Notes: generated by a model not told the origin, from the letters alone. Counted from the stretch's first letter, positions 4,121 to 43,450 are shown. The stretch: 64,000 bases of DNA from a virus (IMGVR_UViG_2718218168_000001:1-64000); one strand, 5' to 3'. Made by a program: numbers and translations.

Positions 4121-7108
4121 ATGAGCTTAAGCGATCAGGTGGTAATGGCCACCAGCATAGAAACGCTGATCGAGCTGCTAAAGAACCTGCCCGATTATGG
4201 GCGGGTTTCGTATGTGGTGACAGCGAAGGGAGACGAGGTAAAAACAGCGTTTGATATCGTCGATGCCTCAGTTCTTTTGGTATCCAATACTCTGGATGGG
4301 AAAATTAATCCAGACTATCCCCAGGAACTTCAGCCGCGCGACCGGACCCGCGCATCCAGCCTTCTTCAGGTCAACCAGATATCCAAGGATTTGCGTCCTG
4401 CCCAGCTTACCGATTCCGGTTTATCCAGCCATGGCGCGCCAATAATTGGTGAGGACAATGCCGTTGAGTCAGGTAATGGGCGGACCATGGGGATCATTAA
4501 AGCCTATCAGGACGGTAATGCGGATCGGTATCGGGAGTACCTGATTGAACATGCGACCGAATTCGGCATACGGCCTGAAAAGGTTGAATCAATGACGGCT
4601 CCGGTACTGGTGCGCCGCCGGTTAACTAAGGTTGACCGCGTTCAGTTTGCCAAGGACTCAAATATTTCTGATCTTCAGGAAATGGCAGCCAGTGAAAAGG
4701 CTTTTGTTGATGCCGACAGCATAACACCGGCGATGATGGCGCTTTTTAACCCGTCAGAAAGCGGAGATCTGCTTAGCCGCAGTAATGACGCGTTTATTCG
4801 CGGATTTATGACGCAAGTTGGTGCCACACAGGCGGCTGGCCTTGTAACTGAAGATGGGCGACCAACACGGCAACTTGTAGACCGTATACAAAACGCGATC
4901 TTTGCCAAGGCATATAAGAATGCGCGCCTGGTAAGGATGGTTGCAGAAGAACCTGATCCGGACATGCGTAATGTTCTGACGGCGCTTAATGCGGCAGCCA
5001 ATGATTTTGTCCAGATGCAGGCTTTATCAGGAGAAGCGCACAAGCAGGCTGTGACAACTATTGTTGATGGCATTGAGACAGCGGATAGCCTCGATAAAAA
5101 GGCGCTGGCGGCATTGAAAGATGCGGTAGACCTGGTAAGGCAATCGAAGGAGTCAGGCCAGCATATTACCGATGTTATTGCTCAGGGGGATATGTTCAGC
5201 GAAACGGCCCCGGAAGTGAAAGCACTCGCGTTGTTCATCGTCGCGAATAACCGTAGCGCGAAGCGTATGGCCTCCGCCTTTAAGTTGATGGCTCAACGTA
5301 TCAATGATGAGTTACAGCACCAGGGCCAGGCGCTGGGGGATATGTTTGGCGGTGGTGATGTGTCGTTACAGGATATCCTTCGCCAGGTGTCTCAGGAACT
5401 GGAAAACGAAGGCATGCAAGGGATATCCGGCGGTCTTTTCGAGTCCGTTTCCGGCGGTAGTTACAATGGTGTTGCTCCATATACCAGTTTGCTATTACAT
5501 CGGGCATCCGGCATCAAAGACATTATTCATCTGATCAGGCTGCTTTCCCGTACAGATCCCCAGGATGAACAGCTTGTACAAGTGCTTGCGCATTTTGTTC
5601 GAATGCCTGTTGCCGACGTGAAAAAATGGTGCCGATTATTCGGTATCAGCAATTCGTTACTTCGCGGCTTGTTAAATCACGCATCCTCCCTTGGGCGCGA
5701 TGGCTTTGACGAGATAGCGCAGGCGATAAAAAACGGAGATATGCCACCAGCTATTGACTGGTTTTCCATTCGCCCAACCAGGGTGAAAGCATTCCTTAGC
5801 GCGGCGCATTCGGCATCACCATTGGCAGAAATGGTTCAGAAGTTGTCGCTCATATTCACAGACCATACCGCGTTGGGTGATTTGACTCTGGACGAGATGA
5901 AAGAAGCCTCCATTCAGTGGGCCGATCAACAAAATGAGGTTAACTCTGACTTCTTGCCAGCATTCAGGAAGGCCGTTAGTAAAGCTGATGATGCCCGTGG
6001 AATTCTGAGGGCATTTAAGGCATTGCAAAGTCAGGTTAATAAACATGTCGGTGATATCGATGGGGTAACGGCGGAAGGCAGGGATATCCTTAAAGAGCAC
6101 GGCATAACGCCAGAGTTTATTGATGAGATCAGGACTGATATGCAGCGTGAGGTCGTATCGTCCCTGCAAATCGTAGCCAGAGCGTTGGCGGATGCTAATC
6201 CGAAGAGTGCGGCCATTGTTAACCGTGTTATTGGTGATATTGAAGCATCGGAGGGCATGGGGGCGCTGAAACTCTTCCTTTCGCGAGCGTTTAATCCTAA
6301 CGGCAATATTCTCCCCGGCATTATTGGTGAGGCTAAAAAGTATGTCAGCGAAGAAGAACTTGAGCATCTTGACCAACTACTTAAGCGATTCTCATATAAC
6401 CCGCAGACACGCTGGCAAATGAATCAGCAAAGTATGGGTTCGGTCCACGAGAAAGTGTTATCTGCCATGAACAGTGCGATCGCAAACTCATCCGTATCTG
6501 AAGAAAAAGCTCTTGAGTGGGCCGACTCTTTTATCACGGAAGAAGTGGAAGAAGCCCGCGCTGGACAGAATGGTGGGATAGACCTGCGCAAGGAACTTGC
6601 TGATATTTATCGCCTGACCGGCGGTAAAATTTCGACCTTATCAAAGGTGGTTCACCACCAGGGAAGGGCATATGCAAATCTTAATGGTGTTGTTGCTGTC
6701 AATTTGAACGATGAAAATGCAAGTGCACTGTGGCACGAGCTGGGTCATCATCTTGAGTACAGTAACCCTGGTTTGTTAGAGAAAGCCCGGTCATTCCTGA
6801 AGGCCAATGTTGAAGGGGATAAGCCATCTTTCGTTAATATCGGTGGGCGTGGCAAGCCTGAATGGTGCTTCAGATCTCGATTGAGTAATATTTATATGGC
6901 GAAGGTATACCCGCCAGCCTCAGTAAGTAACACCGGGAAAATTCGGCAGAAATCACCGACTATTTCCAAAACGTCAGCAACGGAAGTATTCTCTATGGCT
7001 CTTCAGTTGTATCATGACAAAGAGGCCGCTGCCGCATCACTGATGAATGGTGACGGATTGCTGGAACTGTTATTAGGTGTGGCAAAGGAGCTAAATAATG
7101 CAGATTAA
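4121..7108 (+). CDS. ddrB: DdrB-like large dar operon protein
   Basis: 995 aa ORF directly after ddrA; contains an HExxH-like motif (HELGHH) near the C-terminus; position as in the P1 dar operon. Confidence 0.65.
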   Translation: MSLSDQVVMATSIETLIELLKNLPDYGRVSYVVTAKGDEVKTAFDIVDASVLLVSNTLDGKINPDYPQELQPRDRTRASSLLQVNQISKDLRPAQLTDSGLSSHGAPIIGEDNAVESGNGRTMGIIKAYQDGNADRYREYLIEHATEFGIRPEKVESMTAPVLVRRRLTKVDRVQFAKDSNISDLQEMAASEKAFVDADSITPAMMALFNPSESGDLLSRSNDAFIRGFMTQVGATQAAGLVTEDGRPTRQLVDRIQNAIFAKAYKNARLVRMVAEEPDPDMRNVLTALNAAANDFVQMQALSGEAHKQAVTTIVDGIETADSLDKKALAALKDAVDLVRQSKESGQHITDVIAQGDMFSETAPEVKALALFIVANNRSAKRMASAFKLMAQRINDELQHQGQALGDMFGGGDVSLQDILRQVSQELENEGMQGISGGLFESVSGGSYNGVAPYTSLLLHRASGIKDIIHLIRLLSRTDPQDEQLVQVLAHFVRMPVADVKKWCRLFGISNSLLRGLLNHASSLGRDGFDEIAQAIKNGDMPPAIDWFSIRPTRVKAFLSAAHSASPLAEMVQKLSLIFTDHTALGDLTLDEMKEASIQWADQQNEVNSDFLPAFRKAVSKADDARGILRAFKALQSQVNKHVGDIDGVTAEGRDILKEHGITPEFIDEIRTDMQREVVSSLQIVARALADANPKSAAIVNRVIGDIEASEGMGALKLFLSRAFNPNGNILPGIIGEAKKYVSEEELEHLDQLLKRFSYNPQTRWQMNQQSMGSVHEKVLSAMNSAIANSSVSEEKALEWADSFITEEVEEARAGQNGGIDLRKELADIYRLTGGKISTLSKVVHHQGRAYANLNGVVAVNLNDENASALWHELGHHLEYSNPGLLEKARSFLKANVEGDKPSFVNIGGRGKPEWCFRSRLSNIYMAKVYPPASVSNTGKIRQKSPTISKTSATEVFSMALQLYHDKEAAAASLMNGDGLLELLLGVAKELNNAD

Positions 7109-36042: not shown

Positions 36043-37086
36043 TTATCTAACACTCGACGAATGACTTGTGATAACGCCCACTCCAAGCGCGTAATCAAAG
36101 AACAATCGTTGATGCATCGCCAACCTACCGTGCGTCTTCTCCCAATTATCGCGGTCACGCTCAATATCACGCTGGCATGACTGGCACAGAGGAATTGCGT
36201 AAATGTCATGCGCGCATAATCGACTATGACGAACGATATAAGGCGTAATGTGAGCGCCAGCTCCCGCAGCTCCACACCCACAGCATGGACGGGAAGCAAC
36301 AAAGTCCATGTACTCAGGTAATTTTAGCGATTGCAGTTTTGGTATTTTGAAATGCGCCATGCCAGGGTCGGAGTCAACATCCACAGGGCATACTTTTGCA
36401 CGCATCGGCGCGGCGCGTTCTTCCATCATCTGAACATATGCTGTAGCGCGATCGTCATACGGGCGAATATCCGCCTCTTTCAGAGGTCCGCTATCCTGCG
36501 GAGTAGCCTTCATCTTATTTATTGATATGCGGCAGACTTCTTCCGGCATCAGGTGCATCATGTTGCGCATGAAAGCCCACCAGCACAGCTCCTGAATACT
36601 TAAATCATGGCTATTTGAAAGGCCCATTTCCTGACGGGCGACATCCAGTATCCAGTTAACGCGATTATTGTGCAGCGTTTCTTTCAGCTCATTAAAACCA
36701 CGCATCCGATAATGGTTATCGTGATGCCAGCACAACAACACCGCGCTATTGTCTCGTTCAGCGTGGACAATATGATTGTCACACCAACTACGATCTGCGG
36801 CCTGGCATTGACCCTCTTTCCTACGCAACCACGCCACCAGCGCGTCAATTCCACCAATACGGCGAAACAGTTCATCGCTGTTAAAAAACGGCTGCAACGC
36901 CTCATTTGTTGCCATGGTTTGCTCGGTAACAACGAGGCCGTCTTCCATGTGCTCGATTAACTCACGCGGCACCGGCTCCATAATAAATTTACGGCCAGCC
37001 TCCACCAGCTTTCTGACCTCCTGATCCACTTTGAACGTGGCGAGGCCAAGCTCTTTCTGTACAAAGGGAGTAATTACGGCTTTCAC
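36043..37086 (-). CDS. pdcB: PdcB-like protein
   Basis: 347 aa ORF downstream of doc with Cys clusters ([12 protein letters not shown]...CQSCQRD); position as in P1. Confidence 0.5.
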
Positions 37087-37113
37087 ATCACACCTTTAAT
37101 CACTGATTGGGCT

Positions 37114-37314
37114 TTATCTGCTGCCCGGCATTCTCTGTTTAAGCACAACCATTTCCTGACGGCATAACACAGCAATAGCGGTCCTGACTCCAATTTGCTT
37201 ACCAACCAGGTATTGCTTTACCTTGCGGCGACTCACGCCATCAAGAAGCATCTTTAACGCTTCACGGGACAATTTGTTGTATTTGCGTGCCATTAATCTA
37301 CTCCGCAGAACCAT
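37114..37314 (-). CDS. pdcA: PdcA-like small basic protein
   Basis: 66 aa ORF overlapping the doc 3' end. Confidence 0.4.
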
Positions 37315-37678
37315 ACAATCTACGTAACGTGGCGGCGACAGAAGATACAGATATCTCGCCAGTCGCAGCCCCTACGGTAAGGTCTGCCAGTTCAGGTGAA
37401 TCAAATACCTGCACCCCGTTACGGCGTAGAAATAACAGCGCACTGTTTAGCGCGGTACGCTTATTGGCATCATTGAATATATGCCCTCTCGCCGTAGCCA
37501 CCAGGTAGGTGGCGGAGACTTCGAAAAGGTCGGTGATCTCTTCGTAGGCAACTCTGGCCTGAACTCTCCCGATAATGGCCTCTGCCCTACCCGGATCTGA
37601 CATTCCCGGCAGGCCGCCGTAGCGGTTTATATTCGCATCATGAAGCGCAATAAGTTCTTCCGGTGATATATGCCTCAT
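37298..37678 (-). CDS. doc: Doc toxin (Fic-family kinase)
   Basis: 126 aa; Fic motif [11 protein letters not shown]; overlaps the phd stop. Confidence 0.95.
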
Positions 37679-37899
37679 TATCGGTTAACCAGTTCCTTGT
37701 TGGTGGAGTCCAGGGTGTCAAACAGGGATGCAAATTCAGCATCCAGCGCCGCTTTTTTGTAGGTTTCAAAAGTAGCCTTGCTGACAATTACTGCTGGCTC
37801 ACGGCCTCTGCGGGTGATTTCAACCTCTTCCCCTGCTTCAACATTATTGAGCACTTCGCTAAGGTTGCCGCGCGCGGTACGGAAGTTAATGGATTGCAT
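37678..37899 (-). CDS. phd: Phd antitoxin
   Basis: 73 aa from [16 protein letters not shown]; classic phd-doc operon arrangement. Confidence 0.95.
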
Positions 37900-38043
37900 A
37901 AACACCTCGTGTACTCGTTATGTGTACACAATTATAAACTTCACAAGCATAAAGCACCAGCACTTTGCAGCTTAAATCACCGGACAATCGTCAAACTCCC
38001 CACTTCGGGCATCATTGATGAAATGATGTGGTCACACCAAACT

Positions 38044-38508
38044 TTAATCTTCAAGGTCTGCTTCTGATACCACTGTATAACCCAGAAATATTTTAATCTC
38101 ATCCCACAATCCCATGATCTTGCCTTCATACTCTGATGGTTCTCTTACAATTACTGAATCTGGGGGAGAGTGAGCCTCTAATTCAGTTATGATCTCATGG
38201 CAAAGATTATGTTTGTAATATTGTTTTAGTTTCTCTCGAATAGGTTTTGGCGCACTTTCAATAGTTTCTTTTGCGGCATTTAGTGAAAGAATTATATTAC
38301 TTGCGTCATTAACATCCCAGTCTGATCCAGCTTTTCCTGTTGCTATTTTATTTGCCCTATCAGCAAAGTTTATCAATGCTTCACTATAAAATTTTTCCTT
38401 ATCGAATAATCCAAGATTTTTACTTGTGCGCAAACTAATAAAAGCAGCTATTGCTGACCCAAATGCCGCAATAGCTGATGCCCAATCGGGATTGATATGA
38501 AGAAACAT
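38044..38508 (-). CDS. membrane-anchored protein (cargo)
   Basis: 154 aa; N-terminal transmembrane helix (WASAIAAFGSAIAAFISL); AT-rich codon usage; no P1 counterpart recalled. Confidence 0.5.
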   Translation of the reverse strand: MFLHINPDWASAIAAFGSAIAAFISLRTSKNLGLFDKEKFYSEALINFADRANKIATGKAGSDWDVNDASNIILSLNAAKETIESAPKPIREKLKQYYKHNLCHEIITELEAHSPPDSVIVREPSEYEGKIMGLWDEIKIFLGYTVVSEADLED

Positions 38509-38592
38509 GCTATCTCTACCTAATGCCAGATCTTTAACCTAGAAATATTGTATCAGTAGTTATGGCTTTGCCACCAGTAATGCGATTTTTTC

Positions 38593-39252
38593 CTAGTTGT
38601 CATTGCCCCCTACCAGCGGCAATAAAGCCCTGGCCATCTTATGAACCAATAGTGCATCAATAATGCCAAGCGTATGCCCCGGGTTAATGTTTAATGCCGC
38701 CTCAAGGTGACACCTTTCCAGGCCACTTTTCTCGGCTTGTTTATGATGGTCTGGCTTAATAACGTCGCCCAAAACACGGCTAATTCTTTCTCGTAATTGC
38801 TGGGTGCCAGCACACTTGATCGCTGTATCGTGGAGACGGTTAACCAGTTCGCGATAAACATGCGGCTTAATGCGGATACGTTCACCGGTGACGCCCTTTC
38901 CTGGCCCTGGCACCGAACTATCCGGAATATCCGGATAGTTGCCAGCCTCGTAAGCTACCCGCAGCCAGTGCATGAATGTTTCAGTAGACACACAACCACA
39001 GTCCACATCGATTTTTCCGCGTTGCTGTTCCAGCCACTGCTCAAAGTTCAATCTACACGTATTACTTTCATGTTGCTCTTTTTGTCTTAAGGCCAGCACC
39101 TGTTGGGCCAGTTCCAGAACGATACCGGGTGACGCTAACCTCTCAAATTCCAATAAATAGTTTGCGTCAGGATGACAAGTAGCCTCGCCTGCAAAAAATA
39201 CCAATTGCTGTAAGTATGCTGTCGTTAGAGTAGTCATTTCTTTTTGCGCCAT
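38593..39252 (-). CDS. hypothetical protein (cargo)
   Basis: 219 aa ORF, no motif recognised. Confidence 0.5.
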   Translation of the reverse strand: MAQKEMTTLTTAYLQQLVFFAGEATCHPDANYLLEFERLASPGIVLELAQQVLALRQKEQHESNTCRLNFEQWLEQQRGKIDVDCGCVSTETFMHWLRVAYEAGNYPDIPDSSVPGPGKGVTGERIRIKPHVYRELVNRLHDTAIKCAGTQQLRERISRVLGDVIKPDHHKQAEKSGLERCHLEAALNINPGHTLGIIDALLVHKMARALLPLVGGNDN

Positions 39253-39608
39253 TTCTTTTCACATTCCTTAGTCCATTTTTCAATGTTCATTTTGGCAATA
39301 TCAGTCATTCCATCACCTAAGAAATACTTTTTCCGGTACGTCTTGCACTTAAACCACACTACAACAGCCACCAGCCAGAAAATAAAAGGCCATACAGCAA
39401 TACCAACTCCAGCCGCGATAAAGCCCAATAGCCATAAATGAAGCTCTCCAACTTCTGTTTGCGGCAATATTCTTAAAGAATTAAACAGCAGACTGAAGGA
39501 ATGGTCGTATGCATTGGCGGTATAAGACATGCAATCCATATAATTAAAGTCATAGCCTGCGGCTGCCGCCCATAATGGGCGGTCAAGAAAATGTTTTAGT
39601 GTCATCAT
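39234..39608 (-). CDS. membrane protein (cargo)
   Basis: 124 aa with a central double transmembrane segment and Lys-rich C-terminus. Confidence 0.45.
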   Translation of the reverse strand: MMTLKHFLDRPLWAAAAGYDFNYMDCMSYTANAYDHSFSLLFNSLRILPQTEVGELHLWLLGFIAAGVGIAVWPFIFWLVAVVVWFKCKTYRKKYFLGDGMTDIAKMNIEKWTKECEKKWRKKK

Positions 39609-39614
39609 ATAAAT

Positions 39615-39908
39615 TTAAGGTTCAGACCAGTTATCTTCAATAGCAATGCTTAATCTTTGTAGCCATTCTGCTAATTTCAGCATTGCTTCTCTTTCGCTTA
39701 AACCACGAGGAAAATCATCAAGCGAAATTGTTGGCTTGAAGCCCCCGTAATTATCCATTTCAACAGTCAGATTTTGCTCCAGCACGGTATTCCTTACGCG
39801 GCTATTGTGCCGAAGCAAATATACTGAACGTGATTTATTGGTTTTATGGTCAAACTGATATTCGGTAAGTATCATCTGGCTTTTGCCATGACTATTACCT
39901 CTCCACAT
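39615..39908 (-). CDS. hypothetical protein (cargo)
   Basis: 97 aa from the internal ATG with a GAGG Shine-Dalgarno; the longer tool ORF (to 39995) overlaps the upstream small ORF. Confidence 0.4.
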   Translation of the reverse strand: MWRGNSHGKSQMILTEYQFDHKTNKSRSVYLLRHNSRVRNTVLEQNLTVEMDNYGGFKPTISLDDFPRGLSEREAMLKLAEWLQRLSIAIEDNWSEP

Positions 39909-39915
39909 ACTTACC

Positions 39916-40038
39916 TCACTTAATAAAACAACTCCATACGTAGTTGATGATTTTTCCCCACGTAATATAAATATGCACTCCAGCAGAAAAACCAAAACCT
40001 ACAATTACTGAAAAAATCAAAACATTTACTTTTGACAT
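39916..40038 (-). CDS. tiny transmembrane peptide
   Basis: 40 codons (MSKVNVLIFSVIVGFGFSAGVHIYITWG...), below the ORF-track cutoff; ends 8 nt before the next start. Confidence 0.3.
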   Translation of the reverse strand: MSKVNVLIFSVIVGFGFSAGVHIYITWGKIINYVWSCFIK

Positions 40039-40086
40039 TATAAAATTTCTCTCGTTGCCGTAGGTGATAGCACCATAATTTCTAAT

Positions 40087-40338
40087 TTAGTGAGTTAGCA
40101 GTTCCATTTTTTCGATGATTTCCGCATGAGCATCATCGTTGTCAACACTTAACTCGTTTAATGCCTCTCGCACTACATCAACTTCTTCTGGTTGGAAGAA
40201 GTCATCTCGGTAGTCACCAAATAGAACCGAAACAAGCCTGCCACCAGCAACATCAAGATTGGCGCTAACAGGTGGCTCTTTACCATCCTCAAATTCGACT
40301 ACAAAAGTTAATTTCCCCATCGTTACCACCAGCGACAA
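40087..40338 (-). CDS. small acidic protein
   Basis: 83 aa ORF; does not resemble the DNA polymerase theta-subunit homolog expected at this position in P1. Confidence 0.45.
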   Translation of the reverse strand: MSLVVTMGKLTFVVEFEDGKEPPVSANLDVAGGRLVSVLFGDYRDDFFQPEEVDVVREALNELSVDNDDAHAEIIEKMELLTH

Positions 40339-40402
40339 ATTGAATACAAACCCAGTGCTGCCGCCATCACAATTCCTACCGTTGCGAATGCTTCAGGCCA
40401 GC

Positions 40403-41245
40403 TCATTGACCTGCCTCCTGGGGAGGTTCTGGTAGCAGCATCCAGAACAAGGCGTTCCCTAACCACGATAAAGTGCCGTCGCTCAACTCCACGTATTCCC
40501 CTTGCACCTGTCCTGCCATATACTCACCGTGCTTTGAATAAATTAAAATCCAATCATCTTGAGCGGGCATTCGCTCACTACAGCTTATCCAACCATCCGG
40601 AGTTACCGGATAGTTGCCATTCACAAGGTCAGCTCGAACATATAGCGTGTCATCATGGTGCTGATTGTGGCTGCACCACGTTAATTCGCTTAACTCGCCA
40701 TCTTCTGGCCATACTCCAGCTGTTTGCAGCCAGATATGGGCTGGCGCATCCTGGCAAGGTGTATTAACTGGAAACTTGTAAGTTTGGCTTACAGGTTGGC
40801 TACCCTGAAGCATGGCAGCGTGGCAGGCATACTCAACGCCCTTAACTGCATCTGCGCAGTAGTTATAGCGATTGCATTCCACTAATTTCCGTTTGAGTTT
40901 TTCAATTGCCTGCGCGACATCAGCCTGTATTACAGGAACTGGCGGAGTGGTATATAGTTTTCGGCATTTGTTTATCCAACCGGCATGGTCAGGCGTGTCT
41001 GTAAAGCGCAAATCGTTTTCGTAGCCCTCACGACTACGTTCTTTCCATTCCGTCCACGGAACACCGCTATTCCAAGTGGGGCGAGTGCAGGACTGATACA
41101 GAACAGGTTCAGCTTCCAGCGCTGCCAGAGCAATCCGTGCCAGTTCTTCCGCTTCTTCTGCTGGCAGTACAACGTTGCTACCAGGTCCGTATGTTTCGCG
41201 CCACTGCTTGATTGTCAGCAGTCGCTCTTTGGTAATAGTGGTCAT
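40403..41245 (-). CDS. DUF551-domain protein
   Basis: 280 aa; C-terminal W..SERMP...W motif typical of DUF551, common in lambdoid accessory regions. Confidence 0.55.
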   Translation of the reverse strand: MTTITKERLLTIKQWRETYGPGSNVVLPAEEAEELARIALAALEAEPVLYQSCTRPTWNSGVPWTEWKERSREGYENDLRFTDTPDHAGWINKCRKLYTTPPVPVIQADVAQAIEKLKRKLVECNRYNYCADAVKGVEYACHAAMLQGSQPVSQTYKFPVNTPCQDAPAHIWLQTAGVWPEDGELSELTWCSHNQHHDDTLYVRADLVNGNYPVTPDGWISCSERMPAQDDWILIYSKHGEYMAGQVQGEYVELSDGTLSWLGNALFWMLLPEPPQEAGQ

Positions 41246-41451
41246 TTGTTAATCCTCAAAACTTTATGCCCGGGCGCAAAAGCACGCGTTTTGTCTTTGC
41301 TTATTCGCCAGCCATCCTTGCGCGCCTCTTTTGCACAACCAGACCATGACGTACCGATATACTCACCGAAGTCTGGCACTGGATATACACCTTCCGTACA
41401 CTGGCGGCAGTCACAATAGAGATGCATGGTGTAACTTGCGGCAATAGCCAT
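41242..41451 (-). CDS. small Cys-rich protein
   Basis: about 70 aa from the internal Met (MAIAASYTMHLYCDCRQC), Cys cluster suggests a zinc ribbon; the tool ORF extends to 41532. Confidence 0.35.
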   Translation of the reverse strand: MAIAASYTMHLYCDCRQCTEGVYPVPDFGEYIGTSWSGCAKEARKDGWRISKDKTRAFAPGHKVLRINK

Positions 41452-41452
41452 A

Positions 41453-42214
41453 TCACTCTCCTTTGATGCGAATGCCAGCGGCGCGTGGCACATTAACTTC
41501 CACGATGCGCACAGTTGGTTTGTACATCTCAATCGCTGTCAGCCAGTCAGCGCCGGTCATATGCTTTTCTGCATCGCCATTAGTCCATTGAACCGGCACA
41601 CCAATAGCTTTCATCGCAATTTCTATTTCCCCGGCAATGGCGCTTTTCCCGCAACCAGTAAAACCAGAGACAACGACAAGAACTTCGCCTTTGGCTGGTT
41701 TTATTTCCCGTGCTTCCAGTTCTGCAATGCGCTTCTCTGCGGCTTCCAGCTTCTCGCGCATATCGTCAACGTACTCGACCAGAGATCCGCCAGCAGGAAT
41801 TTCGCACTCCTCGACCAGTTGGAAGTAGATATCAGCTGCGGCCCGTGTGTTGCTATGCCTGGCGTCGCCTATCTCACCTTCGCGAAGAGCATCGCGTTCG
41901 GCGGTAAGATTGGCTATTTTGCTGTCTTTGCCTTCCAGCTCAACGCGCAGCCTCCCAACCGTAAGCGCAATATCCTCGTTCTCCTGGTCGCGGCGTTTGA
42001 TGTATTGCTGGTTTCTTTCCCGTTCATCCAACAATGCCAGCGCGATATCTGGCGAAAAGTGCTTCATAAAATCGTTAAGCGCATTAATTCGCTGATCGAA
42101 AGGCATTACAGGTGCTTCACCGGCAATTTTTGTTTTTTCAGCGATTTCACGAAGCTTTTGATAATCAATCTGGCTCACTGGTTGCCTCCTTTGCGGAGTT
42201 GCGCTTCGATGCAT
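41453..42214 (-). CDS. Ead/Ea22-like coiled-coil protein
   Basis: 253 aa; central heptad coiled coil and a C-terminal domain resembling lambdoid Ea22-type proteins (from memory). Confidence 0.5.
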   Translation of the reverse strand: MHRSATPQRRQPVSQIDYQKLREIAEKTKIAGEAPVMPFDQRINALNDFMKHFSPDIALALLDERERNQQYIKRRDQENEDIALTVGRLRVELEGKDSKIANLTAERDALREGEIGDARHSNTRAAADIYFQLVEECEIPAGGSLVEYVDDMREKLEAAEKRIAELEAREIKPAKGEVLVVVSGFTGCGKSAIAGEIEIAMKAIGVPVQWTNGDAEKHMTGADWLTAIEMYKPTVRIVEVNVPRAAGIRIKGE

Positions 42215-42414
42215 GAAAAAAAAGACTCCCGAGTGTGACAGTTAAGAGCTGGTGCGAACGCCGCGTTAAGAACGGCGGCATCACAGCCGTCATCAATATA
42301 GAGCGCAATTTTTTTCTCCAGGCGCGCTTTGGCTTCCTGCAACTGCATACCCCGGCACGCACGCGGGATATAATCAGCAATTTGAGCGATAGCTTTTTCG
42401 TTCTGTTTAAACAT
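42175..42414 (-). CDS. hypothetical small protein
   Basis: 79 aa ORF. Confidence 0.4.
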   Translation of the reverse strand: MFKQNEKAIAQIADYIPRACRGMQLQEAKARLEKKIALYIDDGCDAAVLNAAFAPALNCHTRESFFSCIEAQLRKGGNQ

Positions 42415-42610
42415 GCTTCACCTCGATAGGCTTGATGGTGTCTAACAGCAGTCGGCGGCGCGTATTTTCTGCAAAATGGCGGCGTCCGGTATCTTTGTGG
42501 TAAAACTCATTTTTGCCGACGACCCACATCCGCTCTGTTTGGTGCAGTTTTTTTACCTGCGGACCGTCTTTGGTGATCACGGTGCCGGTATGGGTTTTTA
42601 CGATTGTCAT
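42407..42610 (-). CDS. hypothetical small protein
   Basis: 67 aa ORF. Confidence 0.4.
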   Translation of the reverse strand: MTIVKTHTGTVITKDGPQVKKLHQTERMWVVGKNEFYHKDTGRRHFAENTRRRLLLDTIKPIEVKHV

Positions 42611-42693
42611 GCCACTACCTCTTCGAACAGATGAACGAGACAGGCCGATGCTCGTCCACCTGAAAAACTGACGATTTGATGCATACTCACGGT

Positions 42694-43272
42694 TTATTCC
42701 TGAATGCGCTTAAACTCGATTACCCATACCCACGGGTTAGATAGCCAGTTATCCTGCCCGTAAATACTGCGCCAGATATCACCAAAACCAACGCGATAAA
42801 CAGCTTCCGGCGGCGTAATTTTGTACATCGCCGGAGATGCGCCTTCTGCTTTAGCATCTGCCTCGCTCATATCACGCAGCCGTTCCACACGCACGTCGGT
42901 AATTTCCAGAAGAATGCGCGATGCCCAGCGCGGCATGTGAATTGATGGCGTCCACTTTTCTGATACTGGTTTATTACAAACCTCGACCGGAACCCGGTGC
43001 GTTTGTTCTGTCCAGGAGTTACGCACGCTTGCGCGATAAACCAGCGTTGCGACGTCCGTCGCTTTGCCATGTACCCGGTAGGTTTCGCGAACCCAAATAC
43101 GATCGCCCGGTTGACCATATGGACAATGCTTAGCAAGCAACTCTGCGGCCACTGCCCGTCCATAGAATTTTTCTTCAACAATCCTGCGAGTCTGTGTTTT
43201 ATTCCCGCCAAGAATTGCCCGGACCATCTCATCGTTGAAAATCATGCCGCGCTCTTTCACTTCGCCTTTCAT
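42694..43272 (-). CDS. ASCH-like domain protein
   Basis: 192 aa; N-terminal GGNKTQTRR resembles the ASCH GxKxxExR motif. Confidence 0.45.
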   Translation of the reverse strand: MKGEVKERGMIFNDEMVRAILGGNKTQTRRIVEEKFYGRAVAAELLAKHCPYGQPGDRIWVRETYRVHGKATDVATLVYRASVRNSWTEQTHRVPVEVCNKPVSEKWTPSIHMPRWASRILLEITDVRVERLRDMSEADAKAEGASPAMYKITPPEAVYRVGFGDIWRSIYGQDNWLSNPWVWVIEFKRIQE

Positions 43273-43450
43273 GCATCCCCCTTACCCATGCGCGACGATG
43301 CCGCCAAAAGTGATAGAGAACAGCCAGAAATAGATCGCGGCCATAATGATTTTGAATGCCGTGTTCATATTTTCAGCTCCTGTGATTGATTGGATACATG
43401 CCGCGCCTTGCGGCATGTTTTTATTTTCACTTTCCCTGTTTTAAAAATCA

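Follow-up and report, generated by a model that had tools for sequence, protein, structure and literature searches.

What stands between pap and phd-doc in the 64,000-nucleotide stretch IMGVR_UViG_2718218168_000001:1-64000 (hereafter the window), and are the genes found there a cargo island of this element or its own version of something already known? A first-pass annotation, made from the sequence, had described them as a mosaic block of lambdoid-type accessory genes in a typical slot for exclusion, defence or anti-defence functions. With a probability that we put at about three in four, the block is the pmgT operon of this element, i.e. variable region 8 or RD-5 of the P1-like phage-plasmids, holding early accessory genes of lambdoid type that act on the host. 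The slot has already been published as variable: in a survey of 77 P1-like phage-plasmids the pmgT-to-humD interval was one of eight highly variable regions (variable region 8), with pmgT of JL22 'replaced' by a gene cluster that includes an Ea22 gene (PMC9603915), and an earlier comparison had recorded pmgU-to-pap as a region of difference (RD-5) linked to boundaries of low G+C content (GC) (PMC6906374). The feature is therefore of a known kind and in a known place. The value of the present result is mainly corrective, in that the pap to phd-doc slot is a published recombination hotspot and not a new cargo island, with modest refinements concerning a deletion in P1, the ASCH fold of the PmgT family, a gene-boundary sequence and three micro-ORFs (very small open reading frames).

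Flanking genes and a megablast search with positions 37200-44100 identified the window as a P1-like phage-plasmid of Escherichia coli. Its pmgS, pap, phd, doc, pdcA, pdcB, lpa and pacA match those of P1 at 96-97%, and the search retrieved P1, P7, RCS47, SJ46, D6 and more than 1,400 plasmid records. The full stretch was present on two plasmids only, CP057976.1 (99.8%) and NZ_CP142921.1 (99.3%); both carry the block whole, at 99.3-99.8% identity, and copies of it are thus already deposited in GenBank. As first described, 11 closely packed open reading frames (ORFs) occupy the minus strand upstream of phd, at 38044-43272, with pap on one side and phd-doc on the other, all on one strand. They are labelled alphabetically from B to L in the direction of transcription (Table 1) and correspond to the annotation of CP057976.1 minus one ORF of 64 amino acids (aa), which is absent from the window. 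Overlaps of 4, 8, 19 and 40 base pairs (bp) occur between genes of the block. The calls of a DUF551 and an Ea22-like protein held up: residues 218-276 of ORF G matched DUF551 (PF04448; E 3.3e-9, 37.9 bits, cut-off 22 bits), and ORF E matched Ead_Ea22 (PF13935; IPR025153; E 1e-18, 68.7 bits, cut-off 27 bits). The 'several orphans' of the same annotation turned out to have families, since each of the 11 ORFs matched a PHROG family at E <= 1e-36, every such family being of unknown function.

The C1 operator proposed upstream of the block could be aligned base for base with OpmgT (formerly Op88) of P1, with a single substitution (A to G at position 1), which bears out the earlier call; 15 C1-operator-like sites were counted in the window, against 0.42 expected by chance. 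In P7, an operator at the same place carries the label 'Op(hea)'. Operator and the two promoters that it overlaps are together 98% identical to P1, with all hexamers of P1pmgT and P2pmgT identical between the window and P1. A scan of the coding strand within the block for the P1 late-promoter -22 box (Lpa) found none.

The distribution of the array was followed in a protein-level gene table of eight P1-like loci. Most of ORFs B to E and G to K are found, in unchanged order, in pEcoUTI1e, p1303_95, pAUSMDU00014361_02 and MINF_9A plasmid 3; RCS47 and P7 hold subsets. The array thus forms a partly conserved framework with exchangeable cassettes and is nothing peculiar to this element. In PLSDB, pap, as a marker of P1-like plasmids, was found in 654 records, the I-J-K segment in 453 (212 with at least 80% coverage), the C-D pair in 147 and the whole block in 2; most of the cassettes are common to P7, RCS47, SJ46, JL22 and hundreds of plasmids. 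With the known P1-like slot the block shares its position between pap and phd-doc, the C1 operator and promoters, a PmgT-family first gene and a later PmgU-type domain. Unlike P1, it is without pmgV, upfM/N/O, hot, lxr and humD, in whose place stands a rare 570-bp cassette with ORF L, and it keeps the full array, which P1 lost. Of the mosaic region first described, its variability among P1-like elements was borne out, whereas its standing as special cargo relative to P1 was not, the array being common and P1 apparently a deletion derivative. Conservation across P1-like phages, which the first-pass annotation had named as evidence against itself, was found in part for 10 of the 11 genes, ORF L being the rare one.

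In the window, p1303_95, Salmonella SPN1S, Pseudomonas F116 and Aurca01, and Myxococcus Mx9, proteins of the PmgT family share the C-terminal motif ...W.ANPWVWVIEFKR. The conserved ending ...NPWVWVIEFKR is lost in PmgT of P1, which can be followed with the family to ...ANPWV and then continues with 77 unrelated residues that are a K-type gene read out of frame (compare the alternative-frame ORF at 38691-38885 of the window). Aligned as DNA, P1 runs colinear with p1303_95 and with pAUSMDU00014361_02 up to and again after a single junction, where it skips 7.0 and 5.2 kb of them, respectively, to land in the middle of their K-type gene. The junction is position 6064 in the P1 (NC_005856) copy of the locus, in whose numbering the pmgT-pmgU stretch spans 5689-6758; it is equivalent to 38953 in the window. 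From these alignments, P1 pmgT (309 aa as annotated) appears to be a deletion chimera and pmgU (111 aa) the truncated C-terminal half of a K-type gene, by way of one deletion of 5-7 kb. A chimeric pmgT and a single junction argue that P1 is the reduced form and the lambdoid-type array the fuller state, and the long array is probably also the older one. Homologous recombination was considered as the source of the deletion and rejected, since the blast endpoints share only 1 bp and the event looks illegitimate; a palindromic motif that encodes a GNYPxxPD linker (see below) lies 17 bp from the junction.

The lambdoid character of the genes, as originally claimed, was upheld by 513 phage records that match the block, most of them Shiga toxin (Stx)-converting or other lambdoid phages at 90-95% identity. 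In VT2phi_272, homologues of ORFs C, D, E and F lie in the same order between integrase and exonuclease, with protein identities of 94, 92, 47 and 88%, respectively, and those of C, D and E are adjacent as in the window. DNA identity to the Stx-phage segments is about 90-92%, and the homology breakpoints fall at gene boundaries. Nine gene junctions, spread over eight sequences (the window, P7, RCS47, a Stx phage and four plasmids), carry a 24-nucleotide boundary sequence with the consensus CGCA(TC/CT)AAAGGAGAGTGATATG(G/A)C, and the junctions that have it differ between elements. In CP057976.1, two copies stand as direct repeats around the extra 64-aa ORF, where the window has one copy and no ORF, the pattern left when recombination between boundary sequences adds or removes a cassette.

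A useful point of reference is the exo-xis region of lambda and Stx phages, a set of early-left accessory genes that shares an Ead/Ea22-family protein with the block (PMC3824215, PMC7093339, PMC8614690); one Stx-phage variant of Ea22 carries a DUF551 domain, as does ORF G (PMC10834534). Both regions consist of small overlapping genes behind a repressor-controlled early promoter and have the same boundary sequence at gene junctions. They differ in that the block lies on a P1-type plasmid prophage under C1 and not CI/pL-N control, and in that the solved C-terminal domain of lambda Ea22 is unlike that of ORF E, for which no PDB sequence match was obtained. Pfam detected no homologues of lambda orf60a, orf61, orf63, orf73 or ea8.5 in the block. 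The block probably consists of dispensable accessory genes, of the families found in the exo-xis arrays of lambdoid and Stx prophages and partly in the same order.

Taken together, these comparisons suggest how the operon may work. A polycistronic array of 11 annotated genes and three probable micro-ORFs would be read from two sigma-70 promoters; by homology to the characterized operator of P1, C1 repressor would cover these promoters at OpmgT, keeping the array silent in the plasmid prophage and allowing it on early after infection or induction. Comparison between elements shows cassettes to be gained, lost and swapped by recombination at the short boundary sequences and at linkers inside modular genes. 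By analogy with lambdoid arrays, the products would most likely affect the physiology of the host at an early stage, together with the timing of the choice between lysis and lysogeny. The exo-xis region is transcribed very early and alters lysogenization and induction, Ea22 being prolysogenic and orf60a/61/63 prolytic (PMC3824215, PMC7093339), and YfdS, a DUF551 protein, is part of a prophage gene cluster whose overexpression dampens initiation dependent on DnaA (PMC4776307). In P1, every gene from pmgT to humD was non-essential in genome-wide CRISPR interference (PMC10695390). An early, host-acting operon is favoured because of the C1 operator, the tight translational coupling, the lack of a late box on the coding strand, the lack of a defence match among the ten proteins scanned and the dispensability of the P1 counterparts; that its products build virions or defend the lysogen seems unlikely on the same comparisons.

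Table 1. Genes, control sites and other features of the pap to phd-doc interval, in order of transcription (positions counted from the first nucleotide of the window)
Feature	Position	Strand	Description
pap (3'-phosphatase)	43467-43973	same as block	upstream edge
C1 operator, homologue of P1 OpmgT/Op88	43451-43467	-	GTTGCTCTAATAAATCT; 2 mismatches to consensus
P1pmgT (TTGATT...GAAAAT) and P2pmgT (TTGCTC...TAAAAC)	~43423-43466	-	predicted sigma-70 promoters, overlapped by operator
GC-rich hairpin, 10 bp	43396-43418	-	in 5' leader, between promoters and first ORF; same in P1 but for one substitution just downstream
sA, 28 aa	43282-43368	-	unannotated hydrophobic peptide, MNTAFKIIMAAIYFWLFSITFGGIVAHG; AGGAG ribosome-binding site
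ORF B, 192 aa	42694-43272	-	PmgT family (phrog_874); predicted ASCH (PUA-like) fold; YqfB-type K25/T28/R30
ORF C, 67 aa	42407-42610	-	phrog_1226; 94% to gene in Stx-phage integrase-to-exonuclease region
ORF D, 79 aa	42175-42414	-	phrog_1344; 8-bp overlap with C; 92% to neighbouring Stx-phage gene
ORF E, 253 aa (241 aa from second ATG)	41453-42214	-	Ead/Ea22 N-terminal coiled coil and distinct C-terminal domain of ~100 aa
Gene-boundary sequence, 24 nucleotides	41447-41470	-	CGCATCAAAGGAGAGTGATATGGC; ribosome-binding site, stop TGA, next ATG
ORF F, 69 aa	41242-41451	-	Cys-rich; phrog_926; 88% to Stx-phage gene
ORF G, 280 aa	40403-41245	-	modular: N-terminal module (phrog_60/660), GNYPVTPD linker, C-terminal DUF551
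sG-H, 27 aa	40323-40406	-	unannotated hydrophobic peptide; start overlaps ORF G stop (ATGA)
ORF H, 77 aa	40087-40320	-	acidic; phrog_3876
sH-I, 40 aa	39916-40038	-	unannotated hydrophobic peptide in 178-bp H-I gap
ORF I, 97 aa	39615-39908	-	phrog_1258; GC 0.40
ORF J, 124 aa	39234-39608	-	phrog_2638; long hydrophobic stretch LWLLGFIAAGVGIAVWPFIFWLVAVVVWF
ORF K, 219 aa	38593-39252	-	N-terminal module, GNYPDIPD linker, C-terminal PmgU domain (phrog_21459)
AT-rich cassette, 570 bp	38042-38611	-	carries ORF L; stands where pmgV-upfMNO-hot-lxr-humD would be
ORF L, 154 aa	38044-38508	-	modelled as N-terminally membrane-anchored helical-bundle protein
humD scar, last ~69 bp	37973-38041	-	followed by intact Pphd promoter and phd-doc
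phd	37678-37905	same as block	downstream edge
doc	37298-37678	same as block	after phd

The first gene of the operon, ORF B, shares its family (phrog_874, E 2.4e-84) with PmgT of P1, and the exact protein was found on 366 contigs. The ASCH-like protein of the first-pass annotation is this one: it is recognized by fold and motif, while its score against Pfam ASCH (PF04266) is 16.1 bits (E 0.019), under the cut-off of 21.2 bits. An ASCH or PUA-like beta-barrel was seen in the predicted structure of a PmgT-family protein, and K25, T28 and R30 are invariant in 25 homologues, within a conserved GxKxxxxR octapeptide. These three residues align with K21, T24 and R26 of YqfB, an E. coli amidohydrolase (PDB 9kyf) with which ORF B shares the motif GxKTxTxR and the final strand ...VIEFK. 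In the YqfB sequence aligned here, 7 of the 7 residues numbered in the literature (PMC6972931) sit at the right positions. In YqfB the three residues are essential for hydrolysis of N4-acetylcytidine (ac4C) (PMC6972931), and a 2026 preprint describes ac4C removal from tRNA by diverse ASCH proteins (bioRxiv 10.64898/2026.02.27.708502). Because the fold keeps the YqfB-type Lys-Thr-Arg motif, the model suggests that ORF B is probably an enzyme directed at nucleic acid or N4-acylcytosine. It differs from YqfB in its length of 192 aa, which includes a poorly modelled insertion of about 55 residues, and in being phage-borne, first in an early operon and under the Pfam ASCH threshold.

In essentially all P1-like elements a member of the PmgT family opens the C1-controlled early operon, and the family is common in temperate phages of distant hosts (Pseudomonas, Vibrio, Salinibacter, Myxococcus); tblastn returned 348 phage records, 184 of them Salinibacter phages. 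Members were noted in Salmonella SPN1S, Pseudomonas F116 and Aurca01, Erythrobacter ZS04, Salinibacter 3_12, Vibrio Pel, Achromobacter CF418P1 and Myxococcus Mx9, annotated variously as 'hypothetical', 'RNA binding protein' or 'PmgT'. PDB sequence searches with ORFs B, E, G and L and with a PmgT-family profile gave nothing meaningful.

Several points weigh against this account of the operon and its first gene. The early role is drawn for this element from homology and analogy, and the functional parallel with exo-xis runs through one family member (Ea22) and DNA homology of uncharacterized genes; what is reported for exo-xis comes largely from multicopy overexpression. The operator is 1 base off that of P1 and 2 off the consensus, and C1 binding to it is predicted from sequence. 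Internal promoters are possible, with a plausible one in front of ORF L, so that part of the block may be on in the lysogen. For ORF B, the structural model is of moderate quality only (predicted local distance difference test score, pLDDT, 64; residues 63-118 below 50), and the alignment to YqfB scores poorly at the sequence level (hhalign probability 8.6%).

The alternative that survives best is an anti-defence or host-takeover arsenal, in which early small proteins would inhibit restriction, abortive infection or other immunity and vary through an arms race. C1-controlled early expression would suit it, as would the high turnover of cassettes, the small size of the proteins and the dispensability of the genes in the laboratory K-12 host (PMC10695390), and ASCH proteins have modified cytosine or RNA as their targets (PMC6972931; bioRxiv 10.64898/2026.02.27.708502). 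It is nonetheless judged unlikely. No protein of the block was matched to a characterized anti-defence family, in searches that included no library of such families, and the relatives of block proteins that have been characterized, Ea22 and the DUF551 protein YfdS, point instead to lysis-lysogeny control and host replication physiology (PMC7093339, PMC4776307).

The end of the block next to phd-doc raises a separate possibility. Homology to P1 and RCS47 ends at 38041, in the last 69 bp of humD, and restarts at 38612, in the last codons of a PmgU-type gene; between them lies the cassette with ORF L, whose GC is 0.36 against 0.48 for the window and whose stop codon is directly followed by the humD scar. 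The humD remnant shows that an ancestor with humD was overwritten. The earlier statement that no gene here resembles UmuD' or the polymerase theta subunit stands: no ORF homologous to HumD (UmuD') or Hot (theta) was found, blastn against P1 gave only the 3' scar of humD, and Pfam returned no S24 peptidase or theta matches. The hot-lxr-humD set, absent here from the phd-proximal end, is itself variable among P1-like members. Two separate events would explain the difference from the textbook P1, a single 5-7 kb deletion of the array in P1 and, in this lineage, replacement of pmgV-to-humD by the 570-bp cassette. The cassette occurs on eight PLSDB plasmids (E. coli, E. albertii, E. marmotae) and in 9 of 5,426 complete E. 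coli genomes, every time on a plasmid of about 95-100 kb.

A full HMMER search recovered 21 clusters of the ORF L family among 1.84 billion representatives, where a word-indexed search had given its own cluster only. The genomic position of three distant relatives (34-41% identity) was established. Two stand in lambdoid phages or prophages, in the interval from the replication genes to the Q antiterminator, and one of these two, in phage PhiR26_1, is two genes from PD-lambda-1; the third is in the early region of another prophage. The model of ORF L (pLDDT 86) has an N-terminal transmembrane helix that runs into a helical bundle. A candidate extended -10 promoter (38547-38574) lies in the 84-bp gap before the gene, within a generic promoter and terminator scan that overall did no better than shuffled sequence (7 promoter-like sites against 9.2).

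A further rival makes the block, or at least ORF L beside phd-doc, a prophage exclusion or defence module guarding the lysogen. In its favour, ORF L is a low-GC, rare, moron-like cassette behind a gap with a candidate promoter, with a predicted membrane anchor and with relatives in variable accessory positions of prophages, one of them near PD-lambda-1, in an operon that also encodes several small membrane peptides. Against this, a scan of 10 of the 11 proteins, ORF L included, with PADLOC-DB 2.0 (the 67-aa ORF C and the micro-ORFs lay outside it) found no family at E <= 0.01; promoter-like sites were fewer than in shuffled sequence; conservation in the ORF L family falls on hydrophobic or structural residues, without a catalytic pattern; and fold searches gave generic helical bundles only. 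Defence by the whole block is further disfavoured because C1 should keep the operon off in the lysogen, the state in which any defence gene has to work, although ORF L by itself might escape such silencing. We regard an exclusion or defence module, which the first-pass annotation had offered as a typical use of such a slot, as distinctly unlikely.

A bolder proposal concerns the PmgT family. It would be a phage ASCH amidohydrolase of the YqfB type which, soon after infection, removes N4-acetylcytidine or a related N4-acyl modification from tRNA or RNA of the host and thereby alters translation or disables a host function that depends on RNA modification. Separately, ORF L might be an exclusion protein of a new kind, anchored in the membrane and made from its own promoter beside phd-doc. 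This is a long shot. If ASCH or membrane proteins of the block did act on host RNA modification or on superinfection, a tractable, dispensable operon in a classic genetic system would be at hand, which is speculative.

Morphogenetic roles, as implied by the names pmgT, pmgU and pmgV, are hardly tenable, since the historical 'putative morphogenetic function' comes from the P1 record alone and was copied to many homologue entries, while all three genes proved non-essential (PMC10695390), the predicted fold of the PmgT family is that of an ASCH enzyme or RNA-binding protein, P1 pmgT and pmgU are themselves an apparent deletion chimera and truncation, and homologues lie in early non-structural regions of lambdoid phages. 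P1 as a reference misleads here, its 'morphogenetic' label sitting on what is an ASCH-fold protein. The name 'morphogenetic protein' has spread from P1 pmgT and pmgU to many (thousands of) database entries.

The preferred reading, an early operon with exchangeable cassettes, also takes in the modular make-up of ORFs G and K. A palindromic DNA motif of 25-29 nucleotides with the core ATCCGGnnnnnCCGGAT occurs at 40591-40619 in ORF G and at 38916-38944 in ORF K, and encodes the GNYPxxPD linker that joins the N- and C-terminal modules of both proteins; all P1-like loci examined have it in their K-type gene. Residues 102-217 of ORF K match phrog_21459 (E 1.5e-76), the family of P1 PmgU. Ea22 proteins have a comparable modular make-up (PMC10834534).

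The apparent intergenic gaps of the operon are probably filled by the micro-ORFs sA, sG-H and sH-I, as judged from their conserved reading frames. The sA peptide shows 100% conservation among P1, P7, four plasmids and RCS47, with a synonymous substitution as the sole nucleotide difference, and is unannotated in P1; the sG-H frame is open in five related plasmids, and the sH-I frame in five plasmids despite up to 8 nucleotide changes. ORF J, from its hydrophobic stretch, is probably a membrane protein. In the last ~80 aa of ORF E (41453-41700) a Walker-A-like GFTGCGKS was noticed. An NTPase was considered for this C-terminal domain and rejected, as the domain seems too short and the P-loop segment alone matches APS kinase, AAA and ParA models below threshold.

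Further searches were negative: Rfam gave no match in 37000-44200, NCBIfam none for 10 of the 11 proteins (all but the Ea22-like ORF E), and Pfam with relaxed thresholds only noise for the small ORFs. The leader hairpin has no T-run after it on the coding strand; read on the plus strand it has a T-run, resembles an intrinsic terminator and could, from its sequence, stop antisense transcription into pap. Finally, PLSDB (MOB-suite) lists CP057976.1, NZ_LR890336.1 and NZ_CP045829.1 as replicon type 'IncHI1B', where the literature has P1-like plasmids as IncY or p0111; the IncHI1B call on these plasmids is probably a typing artefact.

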